A DNA stretch of 64,000 nucleotides, taken from contig CBDCTH010000012.1 in the NCBI GenBank assembly GCA_965222155.1, positions 416,001 through 480,000 on the forward strand, in the 5' to 3' direction. This stretch comes from Gammaproteobacteria bacterium. GTDB lineage: Bacteria; Pseudomonadota; Gammaproteobacteria; Eutrophobiales; Eutrophobiaceae. Under the pieces are notes generated by a model. That model saw only the letters and a list, made by a program, of their open reading frames with translations, did no database searches and was not told the origin of the DNA. This document shows, piece by piece, positions 19,633 to 40,506 of the stretch; the first letter of the stretch is position 1; every line of letters begins with the position of its first letter. The position numbers and the translations under genes are program-made.

Positions 19633-19705
19633 GGCCAGGTAGCTCAGTAGGTAGAGCAGGGGACTGAAAATCCCTGTGTCGGCAGTTCGATTCTGTCCCT
19701 GGCCA
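19633..19705 (+). tRNA. tRNA-Phe(GAA), CCA not encoded
   Basis: GGCCAGG acceptor stem, CTGAAAA anticodon loop, GTTCGATTC T-loop. Confidence 0.95.
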
Positions 19706-19710
19706 TACTT
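19695..19710 (+). repeat. att core 1 GTCCCTGGCCATACTT (tRNA-Phe 3' end)
   Basis: Identical 16-mer found six times in the window. Confidence 0.9.
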
Positions 19711-19747
19711 ATCTACAAATATTGACGCTGATGAGCGTCATTCTGCA

Positions 19748-19948
19748 CTATGTGGTTTCAAATTCCAGAGAGGACCATTTGATGCTGGAGGAACGCTTGG
19801 AAAGATTCAACATCTCTACGCCTACGAGTTCGTTGGCTTCATTGTAGTCGAGAACAACTCCTGGCGAGACCTCTTCTGATTCGACAATTTTTGAATCATC
19901 CAGACGCAGGTAGAGTGCGTCAGCTTCTTTATCAACGTGCAGTTTCAT
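19748..19948 (-). CDS. DUF2283 family antitoxin-like protein
   Basis: D.EADALYLRL..SEEVSPGVVLDY..VGVEML. Confidence 0.85.
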   Translation of the reverse strand: MKLHVDKEADALYLRLDDSKIVESEEVSPGVVLDYNEANELVGVEMLNLSKRSSSIKWSSLEFETT

Positions 19949-20095
19949 AATTTTTCTCGCTTGCTTCGGTCAAAGAATACGCTTACCACCCGCCAGGGTG
20001 CACTCGGGTGTTTACTGCTACCCGTAAGGTGCGATCGCCATTTTCGGGGATGCGACGGAAAAATCGCTCTACAAACGGATCGTTCGGGTCCGGTG
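19945..20095 (-). pseudogene. DUF4258-like toxin remnant (5' truncated, frameshifted)
   Basis: RRIPENGDRTLRVAVN..PWRVVSVFFDR in the paralogous copy; this copy has a 1-bp deletion. Confidence 0.6.
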
Positions 20096-20096
20096 A

Positions 20097-20182
20097 AAGG
20101 GGGGTTTAAGGAGAAATAACAGGCATAAATGGCACATAAACTGAACTGGAACAAATAGTCAGGCAGGTCCGACCCTATCCTG
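20097..20182 (+). repeat. Dispersed ~85-bp element end (..AAATAACAGGCATA..GGTCCGACCCTATCC); copies at 30390-30474, 41320-41406 and inverted at 28458-28540
   Basis: Direct sequence identity; the GGTCCGACCC terminus is shared with the RAYT remnants. Confidence 0.7.
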
Positions 20183-20216
20183 CAAAATATCCTTATATGC
20201 CAGGTGCAGCTTCCTG

Positions 20217-20510
20217 TCAGGCTACTTCAAGTTTTTCGAAATCGTCGAGGTTGATCTTCTGCCGCGCTTCCCATAAATCATAGTTATCCTGCATTGACAA
20301 CCAGCTTTCCGGGGACCTGCCGATGACTTTGGACAGCTTGAGCGCCATAGTCGGCGTGATGCTGCTCTTGGCGTTGAGAATCCGGCTGATCACGGATTCA
20401 CTGACTCGTAACCTCTCAGCCAGTTCTTTCGCGCCGATGTTAAAGGGTTCCAGGTAGACCCGTTTGATAAACACTCCCGGATGCATGGGATTATGTTGCT
20501 CGATACTCAT
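20217..20510 (-). CDS. higA: HigA family antitoxin
   Basis: HNPMHPG, ITPTMALKL and SPESWLSMQ motifs. Confidence 0.9.
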   Translation of the reverse strand: MSIEQHNPMHPGVFIKRVYLEPFNIGAKELAERLRVSESVISRILNAKSSITPTMALKLSKVIGRSPESWLSMQDNYDLWEARQKINLDDFEKLEVA

Positions 20511-20788
20511 TAGTGATAATCCTCATAATCTACGGCATAGGCGTCGCTGTCCATGAACTCGAATATGATCCGCCAGTTGCCGCTTACGTTAATTGCCCAC
20601 TGCCCTCTCTTATCACCCTTGAGTGGGTGCATGCGCCAACCGGGTATATTCATATCCTCGATTGTGAACGCAGTATGCAAGGCCTGTAACCGTTCCTCAA
20701 TTCGCGCTTTATGGGTTGACTGAATACCGGCCGTGCTACCCGTGGTGAAGAATTTCTCTAATCCCTTATGCTTAAAGCTCCTGATCAT
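20510..20788 (-). CDS. higB: HigB/RelE family toxin
   Basis: MIRSFKHKGL, HPLKGD, VSGNWRI and DYEDYH motifs. Confidence 0.9.
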   Translation of the reverse strand: MIRSFKHKGLEKFFTTGSTAGIQSTHKARIEERLQALHTAFTIEDMNIPGWRMHPLKGDKRGQWAINVSGNWRIIFEFMDSDAYAVDYEDYH

Positions 20789-20896
20789 GACGGCTTGTAC
20801 TTTACACTTGCGCAAGTTGGAATTCAAGGATGAATTCACAGTTTAATTGTTCCTAAGGTACTGACAAATTAACTCCCGAAAATACATAATGCCGGT

Positions 20897-21580
20897 ATGA
20901 ATATATACAAACGTCACCGGTTTCCACCCGATATCATCAGTTATGCAGTCTGGCTATATTTTCGATTCAATCTTAGCCACTGGGATATTGAAGACCTGCT
21001 GGCACAACGTGGAATAATCGTCAGCTATGAATCCATCAGGTTATGGTGCATCAAGTTTGGCCGGATTTATGCCAGACGGTTGAAGCGCCGACACACAGGT
21101 TATGGAGACACATTCTTCATGGATGAAGTCTTCGTGAAGATAAACGGCAAGCAGCAATATCTATGGCGAGCTGTTGACCAGGAGGGTGAAGTGGTTGATG
21201 TATTTCTACAGTCGCGTCGTGATGGGGTAGCGGCTAAACGATTCTTTAAACGCCTGCTGCGAAGACAGGATGAAGAGCCCAGGCAAATTGTAACCGATAA
21301 ATTACGACGCTATGGCATCGCGCAGCGTGCGCTGATCCCGGAGACTATCCATAACACAGCACAGTATGCCAATAACAGGGCGGAATTATCTCATCAGCCG
21401 ACCAGAGTCAGAGAACGCGGGATAAGGCGATTCAAGTCAACTGCGCAGGCTCAGCGATTTTTGAATGTCCACGCGGCAGTGTACAATCTTTTCAACCTTG
21501 GACGACATCTTGTAAGCGCCAGGCATTACAGAAAACTCAGGATAGATGCCTTTGGACAATGGACAATAGCCGTTGCTTGA
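20897..21580 (+). CDS. IS6 family transposase (left IR at 20857; right IR lost)
   Basis: YKRHRFPP, MDEVFVKING, VTDKL and NNRAELSHQPTR motifs. Confidence 0.92.
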   Translation: MNIYKRHRFPPDIISYAVWLYFRFNLSHWDIEDLLAQRGIIVSYESIRLWCIKFGRIYARRLKRRHTGYGDTFFMDEVFVKINGKQQYLWRAVDQEGEVVDVFLQSRRDGVAAKRFFKRLLRRQDEEPRQIVTDKLRRYGIAQRALIPETIHNTAQYANNRAELSHQPTRVRERGIRRFKSTAQAQRFLNVHAAVYNLFNLGRHLVSARHYRKLRIDAFGQWTIAVA

Positions 21581-21751
21581 TTCCGGACAATGAATTTCTA
21601 CTGTGACCTTCCCCCAATAAACTGGACCAATCTAAACTAGAGTTTTCCGCAATTTGGCCCTTCTGACCTGCCCCCTACGGATCAGACCGAATGGATGGGA
21701 TGAACTGAAGGGAGGGCGAAACTCCGAAGGGTGTATCTACGGGTCCTTCTC

Positions 21752-22111
21752 TCAGGTCTCGCCAATAAGACTTTCCAACGGAATGGACAGCTTGGAATGA
21801 AGGTTTCTTATCATGGCCAACGAGAGTTCACGGCGCCGGTTGAGGATGTCCGAAACCCTGCCCCGGTTGCCGATACAGGGCTCCAGGTCCTTTCTCGTCA
21901 GGTTCATTTGCTCCATCCTGAATTTTATGGCATCCACGGGGTCCGGCGGAGCAATCCGGTGATGCTTGTCTTCATAATCTTCAACTAGGATTAGCAGGAT
22001 ATCCAGTTTGTCACCCGCTGCCGTCCCTTCTTCGGCTCCCCACAACCTTTCGATTTCTGCAAGGGTCTGGTCGTAATCCTGTTCATTTCTTATGGGTTGA
22101 ATATCCATCAT
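21752..22111 (-). CDS. HigA-type HTH antitoxin
   Basis: IRNEQDY, PPDPVDAIKFRMEQ and RRELSLAMIRNLH motifs. Confidence 0.88.
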   Translation of the reverse strand: MMDIQPIRNEQDYDQTLAEIERLWGAEEGTAAGDKLDILLILVEDYEDKHHRIAPPDPVDAIKFRMEQMNLTRKDLEPCIGNRGRVSDILNRRRELSLAMIRNLHSKLSIPLESLIGET

Positions 22112-22409
22112 ACGTCTCCGCATCAATAGTGTCATATTGCTTGTGAGTGCCGATAAACTTCACAAAACAGGCCTGTCTCTGGTAATCGATAGCAACAACC
22201 AGCCGGTACTTATTCCCTGCTATATTGAAAACCACACGGTTGTTTTTGAGGATACTCGCCGCCCCGAACTGTGCTTTCAACTCCTGGGGCTTAGTCCATG
22301 AAGCCCTTATTACTTCAAAATACCAAGACTCCAATGGCCCCTTCGCATCAGCATATTCAGGCACCGACTCCCAGAACTCCCTTAATGACCTTTTTGCGAT
22401 TACCCGCAC
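22083..22409 (-). CDS. HigB mRNA interferase toxin
   Basis: MRVIAKRSLREFWE, RVVFNIAGNKYRL and FIGTHKQYD motifs. Confidence 0.9.
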   Translation of the reverse strand: MRVIAKRSLREFWESVPEYADAKGPLESWYFEVIRASWTKPQELKAQFGAASILKNNRVVFNIAGNKYRLVVAIDYQRQACFVKFIGTHKQYDTIDAETYDGYSTHKK

Positions 22410-22559
22410 AGGGATTATTATAGATGATTCCTGATTGGGATCAAGCTAAGATTTGAGTAGTGTCAAATCACCAAACTCGATATTTACTGATAATTCAATA
22501 TCTTGCACGTCCTCACGAAGTTTACATATCTCTCCCGCAGAGACGTAAAATCATACCGG

Positions 22560-22664
22560 ATATATTGTTGGTACAGATGTTGGGATAATAAAAATAGTGA
22601 AGTTATTAATTACAATAAATCAATAAGTTATAAATGTAATACTATTACGTCCCTGGCCATACTT
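22560..22664 (+). repeat. att arm plus core 2 (core 22649-22664)
   Basis: TGTTGGTACAGATGTTGGGATA arm repeats, IHF-like AATCAATAAGTTA, then TACTATTAC and the core. Confidence 0.85.
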
Positions 22665-22694
22665 ATCCGCCTGAATCGAATCGGCCATTATAGG

Positions 22695-22798
22695 GTGAGG
22701 CGCCGTGAAACGCTGATTGCCCGGCCGCGTTTTGGCTATCGGCGTCTGCATGTGTTATTGCAGCGGGAAGGCTGGGCGGCGAATCACAAGCGCATTAA
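22695..22798 (+). pseudogene. IS3-family transposase fragment
   Basis: RPRFGYRRLHVLLQREGWAANHKRI. Confidence 0.7.
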
Positions 22799-22854
22799 TT
22801 TAGAGAAGAGTATAACCTGGGGTTGAGAACGGTGCTGATGAGCGTCATTCTGCG

Positions 22855-23055
22855 CTACATGGTTTCAAATTCCAGGGAGGACCATTTTATGCTGGAGGAA
22901 CGCTTGGAAAGATTCAACATCTCTAAGCCTACGAGTTCATTGGCTTCATTGTAATCAAGAACTACTCCGGGCGAGACCTCTTCTGATTCGACATTTTTTG
23001 AATCATCCAGGCGCAGGTAGAGTGCGTCAGCTTCATTATCAACGTGCAGTTTCAT
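22855..23055 (-). CDS. DUF2283 family protein (diverged paralog, no DUF4258 partner)
   Basis: Near-identical protein to 19748-19948. Confidence 0.85.
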   Translation of the reverse strand: MKLHVDNEADALYLRLDDSKNVESEEVSPGVVLDYNEANELVGLEMLNLSKRSSSIKWSSLEFETM

Positions 23056-23061
23056 AAACAA

Positions 23062-23397
23062 TCAGGAATAAATTTCAAGGCAACTGCTCTCGTGATCATT
23101 ATAGAAGTCATGAATTCTATCCTGGTTGTTGATCAGGAGGCCAAGTACATACCACTTGGGCTTGTTACCACATTTGAGCCAGATAACTTTGGGCGGTTTG
23201 CCATGTAACAGGCTGAGTTCGTGAAAATCTGAGTCCTTGGTAACAATCGTATAACCATTATCTTTGGCAAATCGCCAGATAGTCATATCGTCTGCCTGCT
23301 CAAGACCCAGTGATCTGACTTGCGTTGAACCGGGGTAGATGGACTTGATCTTGTCCAGCAACCGGTACGGCAGGTTCTGGTCCAAGAGCAACTTCAA
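23062..23397 (-). CDS. DUF5615 PIN-like toxin
   Basis: MKLLLDQNL, IVTKDSDF and PPKVIWL.CGN motifs. Confidence 0.88.
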   Translation of the reverse strand: MKLLLDQNLPYRLLDKIKSIYPGSTQVRSLGLEQADDMTIWRFAKDNGYTIVTKDSDFHELSLLHGKPPKVIWLKCGNKPKWYVLGLLINNQDRIHDFYNDHESSCLEIYS

Positions 23398-23621
23398 GTC
23401 TGTGCTATCGTAGATAACTGGTGTTCACGGTCGGCAGCAAAGGCAAGACAAGCTCTGATATCATCCCTGGTCAGTTCCGGATAATCGTCCAGAATCTCAG
23501 TTTCGCTCATACCTGACGCCAACCAGTCCAGCACATCATAGACGGTGATCCGCATGGAGCGGATACACGGCTTGCCGCCACGCTTACCTGGTTCGATGGT
23601 AATGTAATTTTGATAGTTCAT
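23394..23621 (-). CDS. DUF433 antitoxin
   Basis: PGKRGGKPCIR..RITV..YPELT.DDI.ACL.FA. Confidence 0.9.
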   Translation of the reverse strand: MNYQNYITIEPGKRGGKPCIRSMRITVYDVLDWLASGMSETEILDDYPELTRDDIRACLAFAADREHQLSTIAQT

Positions 23622-23709
23622 TATGTGGTGCACCACATTGAGTAACAGCATAAACCTTAATCACGATCCTTTACAAGTAATACTACTCATTTAATTGGCT
23701 TAGTCCCAT

Positions 23710-24005
23710 CTGACATGCCCCCTGCGGATCAGACTGAATGAATGGGATGAACCGCAGGCAGGGCGAAACACCGAATGGCGGATCTACGGGTCCTGCCCTC
23801 AGGTCTCGCCAATAAGACTTTCCAACGGAATGGACAGCCTGGAATGAAGGTTTCTTATCATGGCCAACGAGAGTTCCAAGCGCCGGTTCAGAATATCCGA
23901 AACCCTCATACATCTCCACAATAATTACTGATAAATCAATGTCTTGCACGTTCTCACGAAGTTTATATATCGTCCCCGCAGAGAAGTAAAGCCATATCGG
24001 AATAA
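23710..24005. repeat. Deleted, diverged paralog of 21663-21860 fused to 22481-22560 (HigA 3' remnant plus arm-proximal sequence)
   Basis: Shares GGATCAGAC..CAGGTCTCGCCAATAAGACTTTCCAACGG and CTTGCACG.CTCACGAAGTTTA. Confidence 0.75.
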
Positions 24006-24068
24006 ATGTTGTAACGGCATTTATTAAACCAATAAAAATGCATTTATAACAGTATCTTATCAGTCCAG

Positions 24069-24093
24069 TACTATTACGTCCCTGGCCATACTT
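24069..24093 (+). repeat. att core 3 (24078-24093) with degenerate arm
   Basis: TACTATTACGTCCCTGGCCATACTT. Confidence 0.85.
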
Positions 24094-24195
24094 TTGCCTG
24101 AATCGAACCGGCCATTGTCAGGCCATGCGCTGTTCTGCGAGAGTCGGCGCATCTTGAGTGTCGTGACTTGGTTACGACTGGCAGTCGTACTTTTT

Positions 24196-24396
24196 TCACT
24201 TCACAGCCTCAATCAAATCGATATCTTTTCTAAGCATCTCATTGATCAATTCATTCACCTCGACGCCTTTCGATGCGGCCCTCTCTTTAAGGTAATCAAG
24301 TACGTCATCGTCCAGGTAGACAGGCAGGTTAAATTTAGCTCCGGGCCGGTAAAATTTACCGCGCTCGCCTTCGGTAAAATCGTATTCGTCTCTCAT
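24196..24396 (-). CDS. BrnA/CopG-like antitoxin, cognate toxin absent
   Basis: MRDEYDF..RGKFY..PVYLD.DVL.Y. Confidence 0.75.
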   Translation of the reverse strand: MRDEYDFTEGERGKFYRPGAKFNLPVYLDDDVLDYLKERAASKGVEVNELINEMLRKDIDLIEAVK

Positions 24397-24397
24397 T

Positions 24398-24550
24398 GGG
24401 TATTGACAAGTTAACTAAAAAATCAAGGATTTCTTGATTTTTCATACGCTATTGAAAAATAAATAGCTACGATAATCAACAAGTTGAATTTTGTGCGCGA
24501 ACACAAACTTTAGCTAAAACGGTGATTTTTCCGTTAACTTGTCAATACCC
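24398..24550. mobile_element. 153-bp MITE
   Basis: 18-bp perfect terminal IR GGGTATTGACAAGTTAAC; ATT on both flanks; non-coding. Confidence 0.8.
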
Positions 24551-24575
24551 ATTTTTCAGCGGGTATCGAAAAATA

Positions 24576-24866
24576 TCAGGACGCATGAGGTCTGGCCATC
24601 AGGTCAACCCCCAGTGACTTCATGACTGCAAGCATGGTTTTAAGCCTCGGATTCCCTTTCTCACTGAAAGATCGATAAAGCTGTTCGCGTGACAACCCAG
24701 TCTCCCTGGCAAGTTCTGTCATGCCCTTGACGCGAGCTGCCACACCCATCGCCTTGGCAATGTATACAGCGTCCCCGGTTTCCAGGGCGTCAGTAACAAA
24801 TTCTGCTATTGTTTCAGGGCTGGTCAGGTAATCAGCCGGGTCAAATTCAGTAAATGTTTCAGCCAT
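24576..24866 (-). CDS. Addiction module antidote protein
   Basis: FDPADYL, ARVKGMTELARETGLSREQLYRS and GNPRL motifs. Confidence 0.88.
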   Translation of the reverse strand: MAETFTEFDPADYLTSPETIAEFVTDALETGDAVYIAKAMGVAARVKGMTELARETGLSREQLYRSFSEKGNPRLKTMLAVMKSLGVDLMARPHAS

Positions 24867-25110
24867 TTTGTTTCCTCCAATCGGTTAAAATCCGGCATGC
24901 AGTATCAATGTCCCTGCGTTGTGTACCCTTATCGCCTCCGCAAAGTAGGATGATCATTGTGTCTCCCCGTTGATGGAAATAGACCCGGTATCCCGGCCCG
25001 TAGTGTATCCGTAGTTCACTCACTCAGTTGCCGACAGGCGCAACATCACCCGGTAACCCTTCCATCAGCCGGTTGATCCGGGAGACAATTCTGGCTCTTC
25101 CGGTTTCAAT
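24859..25110 (-). pseudogene. Addiction module killer toxin pseudogene
   Basis: Manual translation RARIVSRINRL..GLPGDVAPVGN*VSELRIHYGPGYRVYF..LLCGGDK: internal TGA and missing N-terminus. Confidence 0.8.
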
Positions 25111-25223
25111 CTTTTTCACTGGTTTATTGTAGTTTATTGACTACACATAAGCAATGTTTTTCTGTGTAGGCAAAATAAAATGTTTGAATTCCAGGGACAC
25201 GAATTCCAGGGACACAATACTTA

Positions 25224-26791
25224 GTCGTCCCTGAATAACCCCAAAAGCTATTCTAACCTGTTGATTATATTTATATAAGTTACGTTTTTTTCTGGACTGA
25301 TAGTGCCGGTTTTGGTATCATGGACCTTCATTTTCTTGCAATATCGGAGATAAAAATGACGCCCAGACAACCTGACGCCGCTACCCGCACCGCAACCGAC
25401 CTGTTCCGCGAACGCCTGGACACTATGCTCAACCAACGCCATGCCTTATATCGCCTGGCCGACCTGATAGAGTGGTCGGTGTTTGATAAGGAGTTCGGGT
25501 CACTGTACTGCCCGGATAACGGTTGTCCGGGGAAACCGACCCGGTTGATGGTGGGGTTGCAGTATCTCAAGCATGTGTATGGGTTATCGGACGAGGCAGT
25601 GGTGTCGGGCTGGGTGGAGAATCCGTATTGGCAGTATGTCTGCGGGGCGGTGTACTTTCAGCATGAGGCGCCGGTAGACCCGAGCAGCCTGACGCGCTGT
25701 CGCCAACGCATTGGGGAGTCGGGGTGTGCGCGGATTTTACAGGTGACGGTGGCGCTGGGGGTGCAGAGCAAGGCAGTGAAGACGACGGACTTCAAACGGG
25801 TGACGGTGGACACCACGGTACAGGAGATAAGCGGTGAGTTATCCGACCGACAGCAAGTTGCTGAATCGGTCCCGGGTGCGGTGGGTACGGTTATGTCACA
25901 AACAGGGGGTGGTGTTACGCCAGAGCACTGCCCGCAAGGGGCCGCGGGCGTTACAACAGGCGAACCGCTACGGTCATGCCAAACAGTATCGGCGGCTGCG
26001 GCGCGAGGTGAAGCGGTTACGCACGTATCTGGGCCGGGTGGTGCGTGACAGTGAGCGTAACACCGCTGGCAATCCGGCACAGCAGCGTATCTTTGCCGAT
26101 GAATTGGCCTTAGCCAAGCGGCTGCTGGCGCAGCAGAAACAGGATAAACACAAGCTGTACAGCCTGCATGCGCCGGAGGTGGAATGTATCAGTAAGGGCA
26201 AGGTGGCTAAACGTTATGAATTCGGGGTGAAGGCGAGCATTGCCACCACGAACAAGAGCAACTTCGTGGTGGGGGGTATGGCCTTGCCGGGCAGTCCGTA
26301 TGACGGGCACACCTTGAAGGAAGCCCTGGCACAGGTGCGGCGCTTGACCGGGACGAGTATTGACGAGGCGTTTGTGGACAGGGGCTATCGGGGGCATGAT
26401 GAAACGGCGAGTACGGTGTATATCTCCGGGCAGAAGCGCGGCATTAAAACCCAACGATTGAAACGGTCGCTCAAGCGCCGCCAGGCAATTGAACCGGTCA
26501 TCGGTCATTTGAAAGCCGACGGGCTGTTAGGGCGCAATCACCTGACAGGGACACAAGGCGACCAATTAAATGTCCTGTTGAGTTGTGCCGGCCACAACCT
26601 GCGCCTGGTCCTGAGACGGCTCAGGTTTTTTTGTCTCGAAAAAAGGATACTTATACTGGCTTGGCTCCGCGTGTTGGTGCCCGCAGCGCGTCTGTCAGGC
26701 ATCGGCACACAGTTGAACCAAAAGCTGGCTGGTCTGGCTCCGCTACCGACGTCCATAATGGCAGCCTGAAATCGGGTTTTTCAGGATCGAC
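25224..26791 (+). mobile_element. IS5 family element, frameshifted transposase (copy 1)
   Basis: IRs GTCGTCCCTGAATAACCC and GGGTTTTTCAGGATCGAC; VDTTVQE/YPTD split by an extra base near 25828; AFVDRGYRG and IEPVIGHLK motifs. Confidence 0.9.
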
Positions 26792-26880
26792 AAGTTAAGG
26801 GTACTCTGATAAGCGAACCATGAAACAGACGTGGTGCTAACAATATTTCGAATCGCCCAGGATTTAATTTCGAGCCTACC

Positions 26881-27154: not shown

Positions 27155-27853
27155 GGGTACTGACAAATTAACTCTTTTGGCCCAGTAGAAACTTATTGTT
27201 AGGAATCAAGCGATGGCTGTTGTCCATAGTCCAAAGGCATCTATCCTGAGTTTTTTGTAATGCTCAGCGCTTACAAGATGTCGTCCAAGGTTGAAAAGAT
27301 TGTACACTGCCGCGCGGACATCCAGAAATTGCTGAGCCTGCGCTGTTGACTTGAATCGCCTCATCCCGCGTTCTCTGACTCTGGTCGGCTGATGAGATAA
27401 TTCCGCCCTGTTATTGGCATACTGTGCTGTGTTATGTATAGTCTCCGGGATCAGCGCACGCTGCGCGATGCCATAGCGTCGTAATTTATCGGTTACAATT
27501 TGCCTGGGTTCTTCACCCTGTCTTCGCAGCAGGCGTTTGAAGAATCGTTTAGCCGCTGCCCCATCACGGCGCGATTGAATAAATACATCAATAACTTCAC
27601 CCTCCTGGTCAACAGCCCACCACAGATATTGCTGATTGCCGTTTATCTTCACGAAGACTTCATCTATGTAGAATGTGTCTCCATAACCTGTGTGCCAGCA
27701 GGTGTGCCAGCAGGTCTTCAATATCCCGGTGGCTAAGATTGAATCGAAAGTAAAGCCAGACAGCATAGCTGATGATAGCGGGTGGAAACCGGTGACGTTT
27801 AGTTGTATTCATACCGGCATTATCCATTTTCGGGAGTTAATTTGTCAGTACCC
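27155..27853 (-). mobile_element. IS6 family element with internal deletion
   Basis: Both IRs GGGTACTGACAAATTAACT present; the transposase lacks the segment between EDLLA and HTGYG. Confidence 0.88.
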
Positions 27854-27854
27854 A

Positions 27855-28015
27855 AGGGGGCGCCGACTGACGGCCGTGCTTGGTGCGGCCGGCGGGTGGT
27901 TCGGGGCGGTTCCTGGCTCAGTGATCCGCGGGCCCTGCGTTCCGCCGACCGTTACGGGTTCACCCGCTCGTCCCGCGGCAGCGATATCGGCTTCCGCCTG
28001 GCCCAGGACAAGTAG
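27855..28015 (+). pseudogene. C-terminal FGE-sulfatase (C-type lectin fold) fragment
   Basis: RVVRGGSW....LRSA.R.......GFRLAQD*; 5' end cut by IS6. Confidence 0.75.
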
Positions 28016-28149
28016 AACGAAGTTGAGATACGATGCCGGTTGAGCAGGCTTCGGACTATTTCGAACGCTTGTGATTCAGGGCTTGATAGCTGATGATAAT
28101 CAACCCGGCAATGAATACACCAAAGGTGAAAATGAACAGGTATTCCATG

Positions 28150-28377
28150 TTATAACTCCTCTAATCGGTCAAGACAGGTAAAGACACGACGGTTGATGAA
28201 AACCAGAATGATTGTCACGACAATAACGGACATTGAGCAGAGTATCAGGATGGATTGCCTGGCTGTTTCAAAGTTCTGAACAAACCACGCCAGCAACGAG
28301 AGGTCTGTGACAGTCATAATAGCGAAAATAATCTTGTACCATCCAATTTCCTGCTCAATTCGGTTAACCTCGGACAT
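28150..28377 (-). CDS. Small two-TM hypothetical protein
   Basis: Hydrophobic 75-aa ORF. Confidence 0.55.
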   Translation of the reverse strand: MSEVNRIEQEIGWYKIIFAIMTVTDLSLLAWFVQNFETARQSILILCSMSVIVVTIILVFINRRVFTCLDRLEEL

Positions 28378-30002: not shown

Positions 30003-30039
30003 ATCTATAAATATTGACGCTGATGAGCGTCATTCTGCA

Positions 30040-31574: not shown

Positions 31575-33345
31575 TGCATGTAACTGAGAAACTCCAAGGA
31601 TGCGGGAGACCCGCATCCCCGGAGTTGGCTAACGCCCCGTTCTGGTGCACTATACGACTGCGGCAGCGGGACCGAGGACGCTTTTATTTCGGTGCCTTTT
31701 GAGCCCGACCCCAAACTGTTCCCGGTCAACGGCTTCGAACCCCGCCCTGTACCCGGCGCCGCCGAGGACGCACAGCAAAATGAACCCCTCCCGCACGGGA
31801 TGCGAGTCAGCTATCCGTTGCCCCCCGCGGCCGCATGTTGTTACACCATCACCACTACTACGGAGGAAGCGTTATGTCACACAGTGTACACACTGATACC
31901 CTGCACGTCATCCATGCCCGCGCCGCGGGCCTTGACGTGCATAAAATGCAGATCACCGCGACCGTGCGTCTGGCGCGGCCCGGCAGCGAGGCCGAGACCC
32001 ACACCCGCAGCTTCAGCGCCCTGCCCAGCGGTCTGGGCGAGTTGACCCGCTGGTTGCTTGGCTACCAGGTCAGCGCCGCGCTGATGGCGGCCACCGGCGT
32101 CTACTGGGAGGGGGTCTTCGATGCGCTCGACGGCGCCGGCATTGAACCGCGCCTGGTGCCTGCCCAGCACGTCAAGCAACTCAAGGGACGCAAGACCGAT
32201 ATCGCCGACAGCGTCTGGCTGGCGCGTATCTGCCAGTTCGGTCTGTGTACGCCCAGTTTCGTGCCGCCGCCGGCGTTCCGCGACCTGCGCAAGGTGTCAC
32301 GCCAACGACGCAAGGTCGTGCGCCTGTGTGCCACCCTGCGCACCCGCACCCATCACATCCTCGACCGCGCCGGCCTGCGGGTGGGCGGCGTGCTCTCGGA
32401 CCTGTTCGGCGCCAATGGCCGGCGCATTCTTGACGGGCTTGCCGCCGGCCGCTCGCGCGAGGACATCCTGGCCGCCCTCTCACGTCATGTCCGGCCCCGG
32501 CTGGCCGACCTGTGCGATGCGCTCAGCACCCAACTCGCCCCACACGCCCGCTTCATCCTCCGGGACCAGTTGGACGCTTTCGAGCAGGCCCGCGCACGGC
32601 GCAACGCCTACGACGCCTTCATCCAAGACCGACTGGCGCCGTACCGCAACCAGATTGACCTGTTGACCACCCTGCCCGGCATCGACCGGGACTCGGCTTG
32701 CGCCATCCTCATCGAACTCGGTCCCGACATCCATGTCTTCCCCTCACACCGGCACTGCGCCGCCTGGGCCGGCCTGTGCCCCGGCAACAACGAAAGCGCC
32801 GGCAAGAAACGCACCGGCACAACCCGCAAGGGCAACACCGTCCTGCGCAGCATCCTCGTCGAGTGCGCCCACGGCGCCGCCCGGACTATCCAGTGCCAGT
32901 GCCAGGGCTACCACAAGGCCCTCACCGTGCGGCGCGGCGACAAGCGGGCGAGCGTCGCCAGCGCCCACAAACTGCTGCGTATCATCTACCGCATGCTCGC
33001 CACCGGCCAGGTCTACCGCGACCCCGACACCGACTACGAGGCGCTCTTGGTCAAGCGCAACGCACCCCGCTGGATAGCCATGTTGAAAAAACACGGCATG
33101 GACCCGGCAACCCGGTCGACAACGACCCAGGCCACCGCCTGACCACGGCGCCGGGCGGCCTGCACTGCCCGGAGAACAGCCGCCGCGCCGTAGCGTAAGC
33201 CTGACCCGGCCGCAGGCCCTAACGCGGGGCAGCCTGCAAGACCATAACGGGCAGCGCTGTAGCGCATCCTTCCCCGCCGGTCAGACCGAACCGGCAGGCT
33301 TGTCGCGCCCTGATGCCTGGGATACACTAAAAGTTACACAGCAAA
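31575..33345 (+). mobile_element. IS110 family element (ends approximate)
   Basis: High-GC block; sub-terminal IR TGTAACT (~31579) and AGTTACA (~33332); long structured non-coding ends. Confidence 0.7.
31874..33142 (+). CDS. IS110 family recombinase/transposase, probably inactive
   Basis: GLDVHK, MAATGVYW (canonical MEATG), GRKTDIADS, LPGI and GLCPGNNESAGK motifs. Confidence 0.9.
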   Translation: MSHSVHTDTLHVIHARAAGLDVHKMQITATVRLARPGSEAETHTRSFSALPSGLGELTRWLLGYQVSAALMAATGVYWEGVFDALDGAGIEPRLVPAQHVKQLKGRKTDIADSVWLARICQFGLCTPSFVPPPAFRDLRKVSRQRRKVVRLCATLRTRTHHILDRAGLRVGGVLSDLFGANGRRILDGLAAGRSREDILAALSRHVRPRLADLCDALSTQLAPHARFILRDQLDAFEQARARRNAYDAFIQDRLAPYRNQIDLLTTLPGIDRDSACAILIELGPDIHVFPSHRHCAAWAGLCPGNNESAGKKRTGTTRKGNTVLRSILVECAHGAARTIQCQCQGYHKALTVRRGDKRASVASAHKLLRIIYRMLATGQVYRDPDTDYEALLVKRNAPRWIAMLKKHGMDPATRSTTTQATA

Positions 33346-33667: not shown

Positions 33668-33901
33668 ATGAGTGCGACACGAGCAGATGCCAAGAAACGC
33701 ATCGTCATTCCAGGAGCCAGACCGGGGGATGTCTTCGATATCCAACGACAGGGGAATGAACGATATGTGCTCGTCCGCCTGCAGCGGCCTGATTCAACGC
33801 CAAGGAAGAGCCGCGCAGCGTGTCTTGAGGCGATGGCCCGGTCGCCGCTGCGTTTGACGCTTTCGTGGGAACAACTGCGACAGATCACGCGCGAGCCATG
33901 A
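33668..33901 (+). CDS. Putative AbrB-like antitoxin
   Basis: ADAKKRIVIP..PGDVF; coupled by ATGA to the PIN gene. Confidence 0.65.
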   Translation: MSATRADAKKRIVIPGARPGDVFDIQRQGNERYVLVRLQRPDSTPRKSRAACLEAMARSPLRLTLSWEQLRQITREP

Positions 33902-34314
33902 TGTTTCTCGACACCAACGTCTTGATCTATTCATCAGAGGACGGAGTACAGCACCATGACTGGGCGCGGCGGATCATTGCCGACGCCGTATCTACCGACG
34001 GGGCGGCCATCAATGCCGTCTGTCTTGCCGAGGTCTGTGTTGGTGAGGAAGACCCGGCGACTGTGGCGGACCGTATCCGTGGTTGGGGCGTTGAGATTCT
34101 TGATGTGCCGGTTGCTGCTGCGGAAGTCTGTGCAGCGGCATACCAACAGTACCGGGAACGAAGGTGGCAACAGTCTGGTAAGGACTCGCCACGCACTCCC
34201 TTGCCAGACTTCTTTATCGGAGCTCATGCCCAGATTATGGACTGGGCACTGGCGACAGCGGACATATCCAGAATCAGGACATATTTTCCATCCGTGTCGC
34301 TGATAACACCCTGA
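33898..34314 (+). CDS. VapC/PIN toxin
   Basis: FLDTNVLI, LPDFFIGAHA, LATAD and YFPSV motifs. Confidence 0.9.
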   Translation: MMFLDTNVLIYSSEDGVQHHDWARRIIADAVSTDGAAINAVCLAEVCVGEEDPATVADRIRGWGVEILDVPVAAAEVCAAAYQQYRERRWQQSGKDSPRTPLPDFFIGAHAQIMDWALATADISRIRTYFPSVSLITP

Positions 34315-34720: not shown

Positions 34721-35492
34721 CCAGCCAGTCGGGGAGTGACTGGGTCCAAGTGGTGTAGTTGGAGGCGCCCAGGACCGCGACAAAGAGCTGGGCCTGGCGC
34801 ACCTCACCGGTCCCTGCATCAATCACCGGCACAGTGGTACCGCTGTAATCGACAAAGCACTTCTCACCGGCCTTGTGAGATTGCCGCAGGGTGCGCCGCT
34901 GTGGGCCGCACCAGTGCCGGTAGCGGTCACAGCACTGGGAGTAGCTGTAACACCGGTTCGGGTAGCTTTGGGTATCCTCTTCCTACAGCAGCCGTTTGGT
35001 TACATGCGGACGGTTCAGTTCCGGGTGCATTGCCGGCCAGTCCGGAACCTGCTGGCGCCGGCGGCTGCCGGTATCGGTGCCGGGCTAGAACAGTGGGGCC
35101 AACCGGGTGTCATCCAGGTCCGCGGGGAGCGGCCAGCCCAGTTGCAGGGCCTGGGCCCGGCTGAGCAGCTTCTGGATGCCGCCGATACTCAGCTTGGTGC
35201 TGCGGCTGATGTCACGGCTGGACAGACCGGCTGCGTGCCGGCGCCGGAGTACGTCTCGTAGTTTACGCATTGTTATCCTCTTGCCTGGCATGGTGGGTGC
35301 CTCCAAAAAAGGAGAGCGCCTGCCAGAGGGTTACAAGTTCAATGCGTTGAGTGTGATTCCGGTTGATTGTGAACGGTGATTCCGGGAGCGTGAACAGTGA
35401 TTCCGAAAATGACCGGGAAAGTGTTCACGTTCAACCGGAACAGGTGTTCACGTTCAACCAGAATGAGTGTTCACGATCAGCCGGATTACGCA
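34721..35492 (-). mobile_element. IS21 family left end and istA fragment
   Basis: Terminus TGCGTAATCCGG with multiple GTGAAC repeats; MPGKRITMRKLR..LGWPLP and GEVRQAQLFVAVLGASNYT, frameshifted. Confidence 0.85.
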
Positions 35493-36205
35493 CCGGCCCA
35501 GGTTGAGTGCACCAGGGTAGTGCGAGGTCCGGTTGATATGAACGGAGGCAAGCCGGCGTATTCGCCACCTTGTTCTGCCAGTTTTGCCAACGTGGCAGCA
35601 GCGACGTCGTTTTCATTGGCGCCTTCGTGTGATGCTGCAAAAGCCGAGTGCATGGCAGCACTGCAAATTTTCCCCGCCTGGCGGGTATAGACCAATTCTT
35701 TTTCTGATTTAATCATCCGTAGCTCCTCTACCAGACCTGAAGCATCGCTAATCGACCCTGAGCGCTGTAGTGCATCAGTCAGTTCAAGGTATTGAGATGA
35801 TGTAATAAACCAGGCGTTCGTTTCCAAACCGATACGTTTATTTTCATAGCCCAATTCACTGATTAAGGCTAACAGGACTGTCACTGGATTATCTGTATCA
35901 CCATATGAGCAAGTCTTACGCTTCCAACTACGGCCCAGGGTGTTAAATGATTCAATCTTGCGGGTAAATACCACAGGATCATGCTCATGGGTGACAACAC
36001 AGGCCTGTAAGTAGTAGTAACCGGGCGTATCGTGGCCGGTTAAGTAATATATATTCTCTGGAGTGAAGGAGATGAACGCATCGAGCTCTTTTTCGTTCAT
36101 GAGCTGATGACAGGCATTCAGTCGTCGCTGGTATTCTCCGTCTGAGAAAGGAAGATCCATGATCAATGGATCTGTCCTGGTTTCAATCAGTGAAGTTTTA
36201 TTCAT
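35493..36205 (-). pseudogene. M24 Xaa-Pro peptidase family protein truncated by IS21
   Basis: PFS..EY..RL, PENIYYLTG, LRMIKS..E and STGPRT..HSTW; C-terminal catalytic half missing. Confidence 0.8.
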
Positions 36206-36382: not shown

Positions 36383-36673
36383 TCAGCCCGTTTGAACGCG
36401 CTCCATGCGACTGTAGATTTGCCTGTTCTTTTGTTCCAGTTCCCATAAGTTCAGTTTAGCCTGCATGGCCAGCCAGAACTCGGGCGTGCTACCCAGCACA
36501 CAACTCAGGCGAATGGCCAGATCTTCAGTGACGTCACCACGCTCGTTTACGACTTTCGACATGGTATTGCGCGCAACACCACATCGCTCGGCCAGTGAAC
36601 TGACAGATAATCCGGTTTCAGGCAGGATGACATTTCTAATCAACGCGCCCGGGTGTGAGGGTTTACGGCTCAT
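36383..36673 (-). CDS. HigA family antitoxin
   Basis: PSHPG, DLAIRL and TPEFWLAMQ motifs. Confidence 0.88.
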   Translation of the reverse strand: MSRKPSHPGALIRNVILPETGLSVSSLAERCGVARNTMSKVVNERGDVTEDLAIRLSCVLGSTPEFWLAMQAKLNLWELEQKNRQIYSRMERVQTG

Positions 36674-36835
36674 CAGTGATAATCCTCCAGGTTTACATCG
36701 ACAACATCTTCACCATCCATCTTCCAGGTAATACGCCAGTTGCCAGTAACACGAACGTTGTATTCGCTCTTTCTTGCGCCTTTCAGTTTGTGAAAATACA
36801 GTCCTGCGATATCCATCTCTTCCGCCTTTAAACGC
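36673..36835 (-). pseudogene. HigB toxin, N-terminus missing
   Basis: FHKLKG..VRVTGNWRITW..DVNLEDYH only. Confidence 0.75.
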
Positions 36836-36888
36836 ATGTCTGTTTTTTCCGGCATTTTGATAAAGGTATAACAAATGATAAAAAAAAG

Positions 36889-38190
36889 TTACTGGCCCAA
36901 GATGCCGAAATAGACAAAGGTCACACCGAAAATTCCCATTACCAGAATGCCCAGCAGACTCCAAATTTCTATGATTTTGGAATGCCTGTGTTCCGGGGCT
37001 ACATCCGATGAAAACATGGCACGGTGATTCATATATGCCATCAATGGGCTGGTCAGGAAGGCAACACTGGTAGCAAAGTCAATGAAAGCCCGGAAAGAGC
37101 TTGTAAACAGCATGAGTACCGTAGCCGCACCAACGCACTGAATAATGATCAGGTGTACGTAATATTTGTTTTCGTGTGCGACAGACTTCTCGCTCCGCTG
37201 TATCAGTGTTTCGTTAGTGAGTTCCGTCTTACTATGTTGGTGATGAGTGACTAAAGAGCTGATACAGCGTGGATATGCATCGATAATCGTCAGTAAGGTA
37301 GACAACATCACAATAACAGCTACAGCCGAAATGATGGGATAGGTAAAACTACCGATCGCGGATGTAAAGAGGGAGATCAACTGTGCAGCAAAGCCATTGG
37401 GTGAATCCGCAACCTCAATACCCGGCTGGTACATGAGCACCGTACCTAAAATTAAAAAGCCGAGAGCCAAAATAGCTGTTATTGCATAGCCGAGATTAAA
37501 GTCAAAGCGTGCGTTTGCAGGGGTAAACGCCTTGCCGATATCTTTCGACTTTGCACAAACCCAGAGGGATTGAAATACGGCTACGCCCAGTGGAGAAGGC
37601 ATCCAACCGGTCAGGGCTATAATAAACAGCAGGGTAGCCCGGTCCATCTCTCCGGGAAGCTTTAAAGACGCTCTGCTCCAATCGATATCAGGTATAATCA
37701 GGGTGATGGCCAGGACAAGAATCGCGACCAGTAGCGCGATAAAACCCTTGGAAACCTGTTCGAATAGATGATACCCACCGCCGATAAGCAGCACAGCGCA
37801 TAATACCAGCAGAATCATTACTACCACACCGGGGTTGAGGTCCAGCGACAAGGCACTACCGACCAGACCGGCGGTTACCAGTGCAATGGCGGCAGTAGCT
37901 ACAAATATGTTTACTAACGTGTCAAATCCTAATACCGCAATCGCCCAACGACCTTGGCGGAAGTAGCTGTCAACCAGGCTGAAACCCGACGCGGCGGCGT
38001 ATTCAGAGCCAAAGCGAAATGCCGGGTATTTGACAATACAGGCAATCAAAATAAAGCTGGCCATGGCCAGACCGAAGCTGGCGCCGGCTCGGGTCGATTG
38101 TACCAGATGCGAAGTACCGATGGAGGCAGCGGCAAACAGGATCCCTGGGCCAATCTTGGCTCCCAATGACCTGAGAGTAGATTCATTCAT
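36889..38190 (-). CDS. NRAMP-like (APC superfamily) permease
   Basis: GPGILFAAASIGTSHLVQSTRAGA and GWMP motifs; about 11 TM segments. Confidence 0.8.
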   Translation of the reverse strand: MNESTLRSLGAKIGPGILFAAASIGTSHLVQSTRAGASFGLAMASFILIACIVKYPAFRFGSEYAAASGFSLVDSYFRQGRWAIAVLGFDTLVNIFVATAAIALVTAGLVGSALSLDLNPGVVVMILLVLCAVLLIGGGYHLFEQVSKGFIALLVAILVLAITLIIPDIDWSRASLKLPGEMDRATLLFIIALTGWMPSPLGVAVFQSLWVCAKSKDIGKAFTPANARFDFNLGYAITAILALGFLILGTVLMYQPGIEVADSPNGFAAQLISLFTSAIGSFTYPIISAVAVIVMLSTLLTIIDAYPRCISSLVTHHQHSKTELTNETLIQRSEKSVAHENKYYVHLIIIQCVGAATVLMLFTSSFRAFIDFATSVAFLTSPLMAYMNHRAMFSSDVAPEHRHSKIIEIWSLLGILVMGIFGVTFVYFGILGQ

Positions 38191-38383
38191 AATAATGGGA
38201 CCTTATCATTAGTATTCGATGAAATCTTTTGCTCAGGCATCTCGTCACTAAATCCTTCGTAAATTTTTACTTTCTGTTCTTTATCCATGTCTCTATCTCT
38301 CACTTAATCGAATTATCATCAAACCCGCTAAGTATCGCAGTTGACGTCATTGACATCTGTATGGTTTTTTCTACTATAGTTTA

Positions 38384-39951
38384 GTCGCCCCTGAAAAACT
38401 CAATAAATCGTCCTAACTGATTGATCATATTGATGTAAGTTGTATTTTTTCCTGGACTGATAGTGCCGGTTTTGGTATCATGGACCTTCATTTTCTTGCA
38501 ATATCGGAGATAAAAATGACGCCCAGACAACCTGACGCCGCTACCCGCACCTCAACCGACCTGTTCCGCGAACGCCTGGACACTATGCTCAACCAACGCC
38601 ATGCCTTATATCGCCTGGCCGACCTGGTGGACTGGTCGGTGTTTGATAAGGCATTCGGTGCGCGGTACTGCCCGGACAACGGTTGTCCGGGGAAACCGAC
38701 CCGGTTGAGGGTGGGGTTGCACTATCTGACGCATTGTTATGGGTTATCGGACGAGGCAGTGGTGTCGGGTTGGGTGGAGAATCCGTATTGGCAGTATGTC
38801 TGCGGGGCGGTGTACTTTCAGCATGAGGCGCCGGTAGACCCGAGCAGCCTGACGCGCTGTCGCCAACGCATTGGGGAGTCGGGGTGTGCGCGGATTTTAC
38901 AGGTGACGGTGGCGCTGGGGGTGCAGAGCAAGGCAGTGAAGACGACGGACTTCAAACGGGTGACGGTGGACACCACGGTACAGGAGATAAGCGGTGAGTT
39001 ATCCGACCGACAGCAAGTTGCTGAATCGGTCCCGGGTGCGGTGGGTACGGTTATGTCACAAACAGGGGGTGGTGTTACGCCAGAGCACTGCCCGCAAGGG
39101 GCCGCGGGCGTTACAACAGGCGAACCGCTACGGTCATGCCAAACAGTATCGGCGGCTGCGGCGCGAGGTGAAGCGGTTACGCACGTACCTGGGCCGGGTG
39201 GTGCGTGACAGTGAGCGTAACACCGCTGGCAATCCGGCACAGCAGCGTATCTTTGCCGATGAATTGGCCTTAGCCAAGCGACTGCTGGCGCAGCAGAAAC
39301 AGGATAAACACAAGCTGTACAGCCTGCATGCCCCGGCGGTGGAATGTATCAGTAAAGGGAAGGCGCACAAGCGGTATGAATTCGGGGTGAAGGCGAGTAT
39401 TGCCACCACGAACAAGAGTAACTTCGTGGTGGGGGGTATGGCCTTGCCGGGCAGTCCGTATGACGGGCACACCTTGAAGGAAGCCCTGGCACAGGTGCGG
39501 CGCTTGACCGGGACGAGTATTGATGAGGCGTTTGTGGACAGGGGCTATCGGGGGCATGATGAAACGGCGAGTACGGTGTATATCTCCGGGCAGAAGCGCG
39601 GCATTAAAACCCAACGATTGAAACGGTCGCTCAAGCGCCGCCAGGCAATTGAACCGGTGATCGGTCATTTGAAAGCCGACGGGCTGTTAGGGCGCAATCA
39701 CCTGAAAGGGACACAAGGCGACCAATTAAATGTCCTGTTGAGTTGTGCCGGCCACAACCTGCGCCTGATCCTGAGACGGCTCAGGTTTTTTTGTCTCGAA
39801 AAAAGGATACTTATACTGGCTTGGCTCCGCGTGTTGGTGCCCGCAGCGCGTCTGTCAGGCGTCGGCACACAGTTGAACCGAAAGCTGGCTGGTCTGGCTC
39901 CGCTACCGGTACCCATAATGGCAGCTTGAAACCGGGTTTTTCAGGATCGAC
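38384..39951 (+). mobile_element. IS5 family element, frameshifted (copy 2)
   Basis: Paralog of 25224-26791; flanked by direct repeat TAGTTTA. Confidence 0.9.
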
Positions 39952-40414
39952 TAGTTTAGTGCTTTCTGCCTTGCTTCCTACACCATTTCCGGAAGCATAG
40001 TTGGTGCATAGACATGTGTTAGGTATTCTAGAATATTGCCGACAAAAAACATAAAATAACATCCAAATCAGTGACCTGCCCCCGACGACGCGCCCGATGT
40101 TTGAGTTAGAGTTCGGGTTCAATGTATAACGTCTTGACCTTCAGTTGGCTCAACCAGTCACGTAAGACATGGGCCTGGAACGAGCGCCCTGGATGACAGC
40201 CTGCCGGGAAATATTATCACCTGCGCCTGCATCCGTTTTCCTGCGCGAAATGACCCGCAAAAAGTATGATATTGCCGCTCATGACTTATTGGATGATATA
40301 TTTGATATCGTTGAATTGGGCAAATATAAAATGCTGATAATCAGTGCAGATGAGTTTCTTCGCTACCTGATATAACTCTTTTTTCTCACCCGTAGAGTCC
40401 CAAAATTAAGCAAA

Positions 40415-40506
40415 ATTAAATGTGGGAATAAAATATTATTACAATACTTTTTAATTCTAAATCAATAAGATATAAAGTTAGTACTATTGCGTCCCTGGCC
40501 ATACTT
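40415..40506 (+). repeat. att arm plus core 6 (core 40491-40506), last tRNA-Phe repeat seen
   Basis: AT-rich arm, AATCAATAAGATA, then TACTATTGC and the core. Confidence 0.85.

Follow-up and report, generated by a model that had tools for sequence, protein, structure and literature searches.

A 64,000-nucleotide (nt) stretch of a gammaproteobacterial genome (contig CBDCTH010000012.1 of assembly GCA_965222155.1, positions 416,001 to 480,000; hereafter the window, numbered from its first letter) holds, at a tRNA-Phe(GAA) gene, an array of five units (U1 to U5) that carry toxin-antitoxin (TA) genes. This array probably formed by site-specific accretion, at the tRNA gene, of integrase-less TA cassettes that are flanked by attachment (att) sites and resemble cis-mobilizable elements (CIMEs), the driving force being the integrases of visiting islands. 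An earlier reading of the window, made from the sequence only, had proposed small non-autonomous cassettes inserted serially by an integrase acting in trans; the serial accretion is upheld here, and a simple-cassette makeup applies to U2 and U4 alone.

Core repeats, arms and left ends of the units

The units are delimited by a 16-nt core, GTCCCTGGCCATACTT, which is present in six exact copies in the window (c1 to c6, Table 1), all on the forward strand. This compares with 0.02 copies expected, and none of 100 shuffles of the window reached six. Indeed, the positions, the single orientation and the unit lengths (core-to-core spacings of 2954, 1429, 4818, 1091 and 10504 nt for U1 to U5) given by the sequence-only reading were confirmed by exact matching, and the genome-wide search that it had advised found no copy outside these six in the whole 4.55-Mb genome (G000; 4,553,329 bases in 12 contigs; the other G numbers designate genomes of relatives). 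No extra site appears in the window when up to two mismatches are allowed. Core c1 consists of the last 11 nt of the tRNA-Phe(GAA) gene, in which CCA is not encoded in G000, and of 5 nt of flank; a core formed by the 3' end of the target tRNA is the feature expected of att sites used by P4-type tyrosine integrases. The sequence past c6 is common to G022 and G019.

Furthermore, all five cores other than the tRNA copy are preceded by a related, AT-rich P arm of about 120-135 nt, in agreement with the earlier statement that the units end in related arms. In an alignment of 14 junctions taken from six genomes, the arm is kept at every junction. Relative to the core, hexamers of the form TGT(T/G)G(G/T) keep the fixed positions -83 and -71 (10 of the 14 arms have both, and all of them have at least one), and a box that fits the consensus of the integration host factor (IHF), WATCAANNNNTTR, is present at -31 in five arms. 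As the hexamers keep a fixed distance to the core across unrelated cargo, a protein-DNA architecture is indicated, and arm-type sites at a fixed core distance, another feature of P4-type att sites, are thus found by sequence on the P arm. The hexamers could be bound by the arm-binding domain of an integrase, and IHF may take part. The arms were also considered as promoters, which was rejected (18 promoter-like sites against 14.7 +/- 3.3, i.e. no enrichment); the best promoter-like site upstream of the HigB_toxin gene falls outside the arm.

The sequence that directly follows the cores is of two short conserved types. The type B left end (ATCTACAAATATTGACGCTGAT-like; the ATCTA.AAATA.TGACGCTGAT type), which includes a terminator-like hairpin on the minus strand, is found after c1, c4 and c5 and also after the tRNA in G002, and the related unit starts reported earlier are therefore a property of three of the five units. 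The type A left end (TCGCCTGAATCGAACCGGCC-like) follows c2 and c3, as well as most junctions in G022, G014, G016 and G013. Type A left ends (22665-22690 and 24094-24115; likewise in L026, L027, L028 and L036) contain GAATCGAAC, the reverse complement of the tRNA T-loop box GTTCGATTC; beside the tRNA copy in G016 and G013, the two boxes face each other across the core as inverted repeats of 9 bp with some 25 nt between them.

Island integrases and arrays in related species

The earlier claim that no tyrosine or serine integrase lies in any unit is borne out, since PF00589 and PF00239 have no match in the window. Elsewhere in G000, there are three PF00239 matches and six PF00589 proteins, namely two Xer-like proteins (300 and 305 aa), two 327-aa paralogues (C12:2409265; C4:433090) and an adjacent pair of 742 and 425 aa (L011 and L012, C4:336402-340491). 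The arm-binding domain is absent from the 742-aa, the 425-aa and both 327-aa recombinases. No P4-type integrase was detected genome-wide in G000 by the arm-binding domain PF13356, the central domain PF22022 or homology to the G022 integrase, each of which gave zero matches. Because no integrase of this family is encoded in the genome, the G000 array is considered to be at rest now.

A search for tRNA-Phe-specific integrases, also advised by the sequence-only reading, was successful in a relative. In G022, the tRNA-Phe gene, in which CCA is encoded, is followed by a gene for a 399-aa integrase with Arm-DNA-bind_3, Phage_int_M and Phage_integrase domains, then by a MobA/VirD2-like relaxase match, a DNA methylase and a SmaI-like endonuclease match just under the Pfam cut-off, and by further genes; about 12 kb downstream come a cassette-type P arm, the first core and then cassettes. 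Judging from these genes, the G022 element is an integrative mobilizable element (IME) in tandem with a cassette array. Homologues of its integrase are encoded in nine of the 23 genomes of the genus, with 28 matches in G022 and none in G000. Three islands at tRNA-Leu, whose integrases are 70-72% identical to that of G022, end with the same arm and a 14-20-nt repeat of their own tRNA end. Among integrases at least 70% identical to that of G022, five of nine have a downstream arm on the same strand within 20 kb; among the 33 that are more distant, six have one when 60 kb are allowed (these counts rest on 42 of the 63 integrase matches). In G015, four matches to a 423-aa integrase with identical scores (390.2-392.4 bits; C1:97253, 526578 and 751332; C7:411022), one of them 3.5 kb upstream of tRNA-Phe, suggest a multi-copy element using a tyrosine recombinase.

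When a sequence model built on the arm and the core (R1) was used for genus and family scans, 16 of the 23 genomes of the genus gave matches, and the 103 genomes that represent 33 further genera of the family gave none, a result that doubles as a specificity control; by this measure the arm family is genus-restricted. Arms are present in all nine integrase-positive genomes of the genus versus seven of the 14 integrase-negative ones, counts that are not independent because the genomes are kin. Other tRNA genes are concerned as well. In G013, an array at tRNA-Arg(CCT) (L040, C3:3377000-3394000, 4592-12455) shows three arm junctions, each of which runs into a 3' end of tRNA-Arg; its units measure about 1.4, 5.0 and 1.35 kb. 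Pairs of arms with other tRNA ends were seen in G009, G014, G018, G020 and G002. Judged by the appearance of the open reading frames (ORFs), the cargo of these arrays is AbiE-like and Gp49/helix-turn-helix (HTH)-like. A 712-nt cargo segment is common to the G013 tRNA-Arg array and the G019 tRNA-Phe array, at 83.6% identity. In G000 itself, an orphan arm-like sequence (C12:1399162-1399278, minus strand; 28.3 bits, E 7.9e-6) lacks a core, and its surroundings are free of tRNA genes out to 15 kb.

The relatives compared here belong to one genus but represent separate species, not strains. Exact core copies are present in eight of the 41 genomes searched, all eight belonging to the genus of the window; with one mismatch allowed, the locus has six copies in G000, five in G022, three in G014, three in G013 (a variant core ending in ATATTT), two in G016, two in G019 and one or none in the others. 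One-mismatch matches in G072 were set aside as an unrelated repeat without a nearby tRNA; such matches are present also in G083 and G088. The differences between congeners at the cores concern entire units, the kind of variation that the sequence-only reading had suggested looking for. Indeed, in comparison with G015, G016 has an insertion of 2.57 kb (two cassettes with a degenerate inner core) exactly at the core. G015 was ruled out as an empty site because arms follow its tRNA at distances of 0.6 and 4.7 kb; it has degenerate-core units instead. The arm-free comparison is G010, where tRNA-Phe lies 3.9 kb from tRNA-Gly versus 36 kb in G000.

Several cassettes are shared between species. The window segment 21691-22686, with the HigB_toxin cassette, is found in G022, G014 and G016 at 86.6-88.2% identity (BLAST), and the segment 36383-36828, with HigA and a HigB fragment, in G022, G014 and G019 at 90-95% (BLAST), being core-proximal in G022 and G014. 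The DUF2283 segment is 96-97% identical between G002 and G000, with flanks at 68-84%. Between G014 and G022, the cassettes are 94.9-95.9% identical and the flanks 76-82%; moreover, G014 reads C-A-B where G022 reads A-B-C, and the A-B junction has stayed intact together with its core. These orders read as a circular permutation, which would fit either the re-entry of a multi-cassette circle via another core or the move of one cassette to the tRNA-proximal place. Contigs from other sequencing runs show the cassette joins 22634>28887, 25171>22547 and 28927>22834, with breakpoints in arms and left ends, at a depth of 13.6 beside about 120 for the main strain in run X8 and of 60.6 in run X12; they hint weakly at other cassette orders.

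These comparisons bear on a reading by decay only, according to which every unit is what erosion has left of its own large integrase-bearing island at tRNA-Phe, the TA genes being kept by addiction and no cassette ever moving. Decay of an integrative and conjugative element (ICE) or of an IME is the route to CIMEs given in the passages of PMC5704250 that deal with them, an IME with the same arm is present at tRNA-Phe in G022, and U3 and U5 are large and riddled with insertion sequences (IS). This reading is nevertheless unlikely. The same cassette of about 1.06 kb, with the same two ends, lies beside differing neighbours in four genomes, G014 and G022 hold permuted orders of cassettes that are more alike than their flanks, and neither blastn nor tblastx found cargo homology between the window array and the four IMEs inspected, the tRNA match alone being returned. 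Independent deletions, furthermore, would not yield only two left-end types across unrelated cargo; given these two conserved types and the uniform units of about 1.06-1.1 kb, the cassettes are probably more than random stumps.

Homologous (RecA-dependent) recombination between the cores and the arms of about 120 nt, together with transfer of whole arrays, could also reshape such loci, with the integrase inserting whole islands only. The arms, which are all direct repeats, resemble one another at 64-90% over stretches of about 50-100 nt, G000 is without the integrase, and U5 opens with a 99.2% identical copy of the first 1155 nt of U1. That copy, however, starts with the core itself, on its very first base (19695/29987), and not in the arm; its identity ends at 20848, four bases before an IS6 element. 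The difference between G016 and G015 likewise falls exactly at the core, the arms of neighbouring cassettes (about 65-80% alike) are too divergent for efficient homologous exchange, and the hexamer-core distances are fixed across unrelated cargo, all of which makes this explanation quite improbable.

The array had also been called integron-like, which holds as an analogy only. An integron-type system (IntI/attC, or a cluster of attC sites lacking an integron integrase, CALIN) or a Xer/dif-module system would account for small, uniformly oriented, TA-rich cassettes like those of chromosomal integrons or of the dif modules in Acinetobacter, yet it is highly improbable. Indeed, no integron integrase is encoded in G000 above the NCBIfam cut-off (50-67 bits for the 327-aa recombinases versus 220 bits for NF040815), the repeat is the tRNA's own 3' end with all copies direct, and the arms resemble those of lambda/P4-type attP/attR sites. 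The arms were rejected as attC-like folded sites on DNA fold z-scores of -2.16 to +0.55 (five arms, both strands; one of ten strands below -2). An assembly artefact, with repeats collapsed or mis-joined, would agree with short-read unitigs that break at the cores, but it can practically be dismissed, as the same architecture is found in independent assemblies including the single-contig chromosomes of G022, G014 and G019, the units hold unique cargo and main-strain contigs of X8 show no difference from the unit interiors.

Several observations weigh against site-specific accretion driven by island integrases. The cassettes of G000 are 87-91% identical to those of G014 and G022, not clearly above the flanks (81-88%), and G000 is without the cognate integrase, which is present instead in G022. 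No excision product or circle was seen among the contigs, none of which bridges a core. Binding of the hexamers is proposed from their conservation alone, with the exact IHF-like box in just five of the 14 arms, and arms of 120 nt could also serve homologous recombination. In addition, the left ends of the cassettes are without arm-type hexamers (one chance-like match in 17 examined), and hexamer-like repeats adjoin the integrase gene at the left end of the G022 island; from its sequence, a lone cassette may have no competent attP.

Cargo, insertion sequences and neighbouring features

The 30 ORFs that were scanned against Pfam include adjacent gene pairs above the cut-off for several type II TA families (HigBA, VapBC, Gp49/HI1420, DUF5615/DUF433), which are predicted to act as TA systems. 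Together with the DUF2283 genes, these are the families named by the sequence-only reading, except that no BrnA-like family was found among the 30 ORFs; its statement that the TA genes lie mostly on the minus strand is correct for all but one, the PIN-domain gene of U5. Neither a relaxase nor an integrase was found among the same ORFs, the DDE/DEDD transposases of IS elements being the only enzymes of this kind. In the HigB_toxin cassette of U1, the gene pair 21752-22409 (minus strand) matches PD-Lambda-2 A (1.5e-39) and PD-Lambda-2 B (3.1e-41) in PADLOC, the latter match spanning only positions 1-120 of a 402-position model. PD-Lambda-2 is a three-gene system, and the cassette may be, from these matches, a cut-down relative of this anti-phage system.

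Five IS features, unmentioned in the sequence-only reading, are present inside U1, U3 and U5: an IS6 gene, an IS6 remnant, two IS5-like copies and an IS110 gene. The HigB_toxin cassette in U1 starts 88 nt past the end of the IS6 element, where its own core and left end would be expected, and in G022 the same cassette is a free-standing 1057-nt unit flanked by two cores; the IS6 element in U1 stands in place of an internal core. In contigs of other strains, 25171 is joined straight to a P arm and, in X11 and X12, 27909 is linked to a type B left end; U3 is therefore a fusion of two cassettes with IS elements at the joint. Simple cassettes are limited to U2 and U4. The other three units are composites, in which IS6, IS5-like and IS110 elements joined cassettes together and eliminated internal cores, and the G000 array is being degraded by IS elements. 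The IS110-family recombinase was considered as the array-maker and rejected, since it adjoins no core and has only two BLAST matches in G000, one of them near full length.

Other features touch the array or its surroundings. An element of about 125 nt in U5 (31460-31588), found at 81-84% identity in G016, G002 and G019, where it flanks arrays and does not lie inside cassettes, looks like a small mobile repeat. The dispersed 87-nt repeat D7 is present in the window at 20096-20182, 30388-30474 and 41320-41406, and inverted at 28452-28539; it has 22 BLAST matches in G000, several of them clustered 0.1-6 kb apart (four in C12:1285057-1287674), and adjoins the HigA genes of U1 and U5 on their downstream side; it is also found inside G022 and G019 cassettes. 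It may be a TA-associated terminator, a small RNA or a miniature inverted-repeat transposable element. Between the end of the array and the genes syntenic with G010, about 12 kb (40507-52950) without arms and missing from G010 encode a cupin, a TetR protein, probably a TonB-dependent receptor (from the translation only) and others; this segment may stem from another island or be core genome specific to the lineage. Directly upstream of tRNA-Phe, a gene at 18291-19400 (minus strand) encodes a transposase with DDE_Tnp_1_assoc and DDE_Tnp_1 domains, presumed to be of ISAs1 type, with four near-full-length BLAST matches in G000.

Table 1. Positions of the array features in the window, in order along the forward strand
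Feature	Positions	Strand	Basis
tRNA-Phe(GAA), predicted attB-bearing anchor of the array	19632-19706	+	ARAGORN; Rfam tRNA, 70.1 bits
Core copy c1 (tRNA 3' end + 5 nt)	19695-19710	+	Exact match
Type B left end (P') of U1, terminator-like hairpin on minus strand	19711-19740	+	Flank alignment
DUF2283 gene, U1	19748-19948	-	Pfam PF10049, 8.4e-18
Dispersed repeat D7, 87 nt	20096-20182	.	BLAST
HigA-type HTH antitoxin, U1	20217-20510	-	Pfam HTH_3, 3.7e-10
HigB-like_toxin, U1	20510-20839	-	Pfam PF05015, 3.4e-21
IS6-family element, U1 (transposase 20897-21580)	20852-21603	+	Pfam DDE_Tnp_IS240; repeat arms
HigB_toxin cassette, U1	21691-22664	-	BLAST to G022, G014, G016
127-aa partner of HigB_toxin, U1	21752-22135	-	PADLOC
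HigB_toxin gene, U1	22083-22409	-	Pfam PF09907, 1.5e-31
P arm of U1	22529-22648	+	Arm model, 101.6 bits
Core copy c2	22649-22664	+	Exact match
U2 cassette, type A left end	22665-24093	-	Pfam; alignments
DUF2283 gene, U2	22855-23061	-	Pfam
DUF5615 gene, U2	23062-23397	-	Pfam
DUF433 gene, U2	23394-23651	-	Pfam
P arm of U2	23958-24077	+	Alignment
Core copy c3	24078-24093	+	Exact match
U3 left part, HI1420-type antidote/Gp49 killer cassette	24094-25220	-	Pfam
dnstrm_HI1420 antidote, U3	24576-24866	-	Pfam PF21716, 4.7e-26
54-aa Gp49 killer fragment, U3	24859-25023	-	Pfam Gp49, 1e-3
IS5-like element copy 1, U3	25221-26799	+	Pfam DUF772, DDE_Tnp_1
IS6-family remnant, U3, inverted relative to U1 copy	27183-27852	-	Pfam DDE_Tnp_IS240
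U3 right part, cassette remnant	27909-28911	-	Core, arm
75-aa membrane-like ORF, U3 right part	28150-28377	-	ORF
P arm of U3	28776-28895	+	Alignment
Core copy c4	28896-28911	+	Exact match
U4 cassette, type B left end	28912-30002	-	Pfam; arm, core
VapC-like PIN gene, U4	29056-29652	-	Pfam PIN, 8.2e-13
Ribbon-helix-helix (RHH) antitoxin, U4	29477-29746	-	Pfam RHH_1, 2.9e-5
P arm of U4	29867-29986	+	Alignment
Core copy c5	29987-30002	+	Exact match
U5 left part, copy of 19695-20848	29987-31139	-	99.2% identity
DUF2283 / HigA / HigB, U5 left	30040-30240 / 30509-30802 / 30802-31119	-	Copy of U1 genes
IS110-family transposase gene, U5	31835-33142	+	Pfam PF01548, PF02371
PIN-domain gene, U5	33865-34314	+	Pfam PIN, 4.5e-9
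Creatinase/M24 peptidase gene fragment, truncated, non-TA cargo, U5	35486-36205	-	Pfam
HigA (HTH_3), U5	36383-36673	-	Pfam
60-aa HigB fragment, U5	36673-36855	-	Pfam
Nramp-like transporter gene, U5, weak	36889-38190	-	Pfam PF01566, 28.6 bits vs 29.8 cut-off
IS5-like element copy 2, U5	38381-39959	+	95.8% identical to copy 1
P arm of U5	40371-40490	+	Arm model, 69.2 bits
Core copy c6, distal end of the array	40491-40506	+	Exact match

Proposed mobilization and comparison with known systems

Under site-specific accretion, each core repeat would be an att junction made by a P4/lambda-type tyrosine integrase with an N-terminal arm-binding domain, and the basic unit would be an integrase-less cassette of about 1.0-1.4 kb with one type II TA (or TA-like defence) operon reading toward the tRNA. 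An island with an attP composed of P arm, core and left arm would integrate at the tRNA, regenerating the tRNA and displacing the old end; repeated events would therefore stack units, the newest beside the tRNA. With an island lodged at the tRNA copy, a situation seen in G022, the left end of the island and any downstream P arm and core would make a complete site pair, and the integrase could then excise the IME plus downstream cassettes as one circle (cis-mobilization). Recombination between any two cores could delete, duplicate, gain or permute cassettes, and later insertions of IS6, IS5-like and IS110 elements, with deletions, would have fused cassettes into U1, U3 and U5. The serial accretion put forward by the sequence-only reading agrees with the lack of an arm-binding integrase of this type in G000 and with the island integrase in G022. 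As for the insertion of a lone cassette by an integrase acting in trans, the cassette left ends are without island-type hexamers, and co-mobilization in cis is therefore at least as likely.

Among known systems, CIMEs are defined in PMC5704250, in the passages that deal with them, as elements that keep attL and attR and lack the genes for integration and transfer. As the cassettes keep the P arm and the core, have a minimal left end and lack an integrase, they fit this definition. In the same passages, the CIMEs related to ICESt1 of Streptococcus thermophilus resemble the window array in their tandem arrangement at the 3' end of a target gene, in the entry of further elements at the att site and in possible cis-mobilization by a functional neighbour. 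Two of four CIME features, the att-flanked unit and the lack of its own integration and transfer genes, are found in the array; as for an origin by decay, the arms match IME arms but the cargo lacks homology to the IMEs inspected, and the configuration needed for cis-mobilization (tRNA, IME, cassettes) exists in G022. Unlike CIMEs, the window array consists of single-operon TA cassettes of about 1 kb with only two recurrent left-end types and no cargo shared with the helper islands inspected, G000 is without any helper integrase, and arrays of this type have up to 5-6 units, occupy several tRNAs across the genus and are shuffled between species.

Chromosomal integrons, as in Vibrio, are long arrays of small cassettes in one orientation, without their own recombinase, bounded by a short site and prominent in TA genes. 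The window array is similar in its orientation, small recombinase-less cassettes and TA content; in contrast, it has no IntI, no attI and no folded attC, its site is a tRNA 3' end with a lambda-type P arm, its cassettes appear to carry their own expression signals, and the recombinase would come from a visiting island and not from the platform. Dif modules have XerC/XerD sites in alternating orientation and lie on plasmids. Those of Acinetobacter (pdif/dif modules) are also small, recombinase-less, site-flanked, often TA-bearing and shuffled between replicons (PMC13141974, PMC12907356 and others). The window repeats, unlike these, are chromosomal direct copies of a tRNA end with arms of 120 nt; given six repeats in the same orientation that are tRNA ends, the array is not counted among dif modules (the dif consensus was not searched for). 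In Dehalococcoides, the units targeted to ssrA are multi-kb islands with their own integrase modules, unlike the integrase-less TA minicassettes of the window. These tandem ssrA islands are alike in their serial integration at the 3' end of a small-RNA gene, which leaves direct repeats (PMC3146451).

Tandem accretion, CIMEs, TA cassettes in chromosomal integrons and TA-bearing Acinetobacter dif modules are thus already known. In the open-access literature searched, no description was found of tRNA-anchored arrays of integrase-less TA cassettes, nor of arrays of at least five such kb-sized cassettes with a shared, positioned P arm, several tRNAs and interspecies exchange. A tentative proposal, held to be somewhat doubtful, is that these arrays form a third gene-cassette platform beside integrons and dif modules, in which P4-type integrases of transient islands would move TA/defence cassettes of about 1 kb with a one-sided attP independently in trans, genus-wide, at tRNA genes for Phe, Arg and Leu.

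In summary, the locus would be a TA/defence island built and reshuffled from kb-sized modules by ordinary tRNA-targeting integrases, without an integron. Its defined core of 16 bp and its 120-nt arm, in which the hexamers hold set positions, together with a candidate integrase make it a test bed for how much of an attP a hitch-hiker needs. The locus also shows that a TA-rich region of an uncultured bacterium can be an orphaned array that outlasts its helper integrase. Should the cassettes move as units, cassette capture would have a general platform in tRNA att sites, one that island-finding software would miss because it looks for an integrase.

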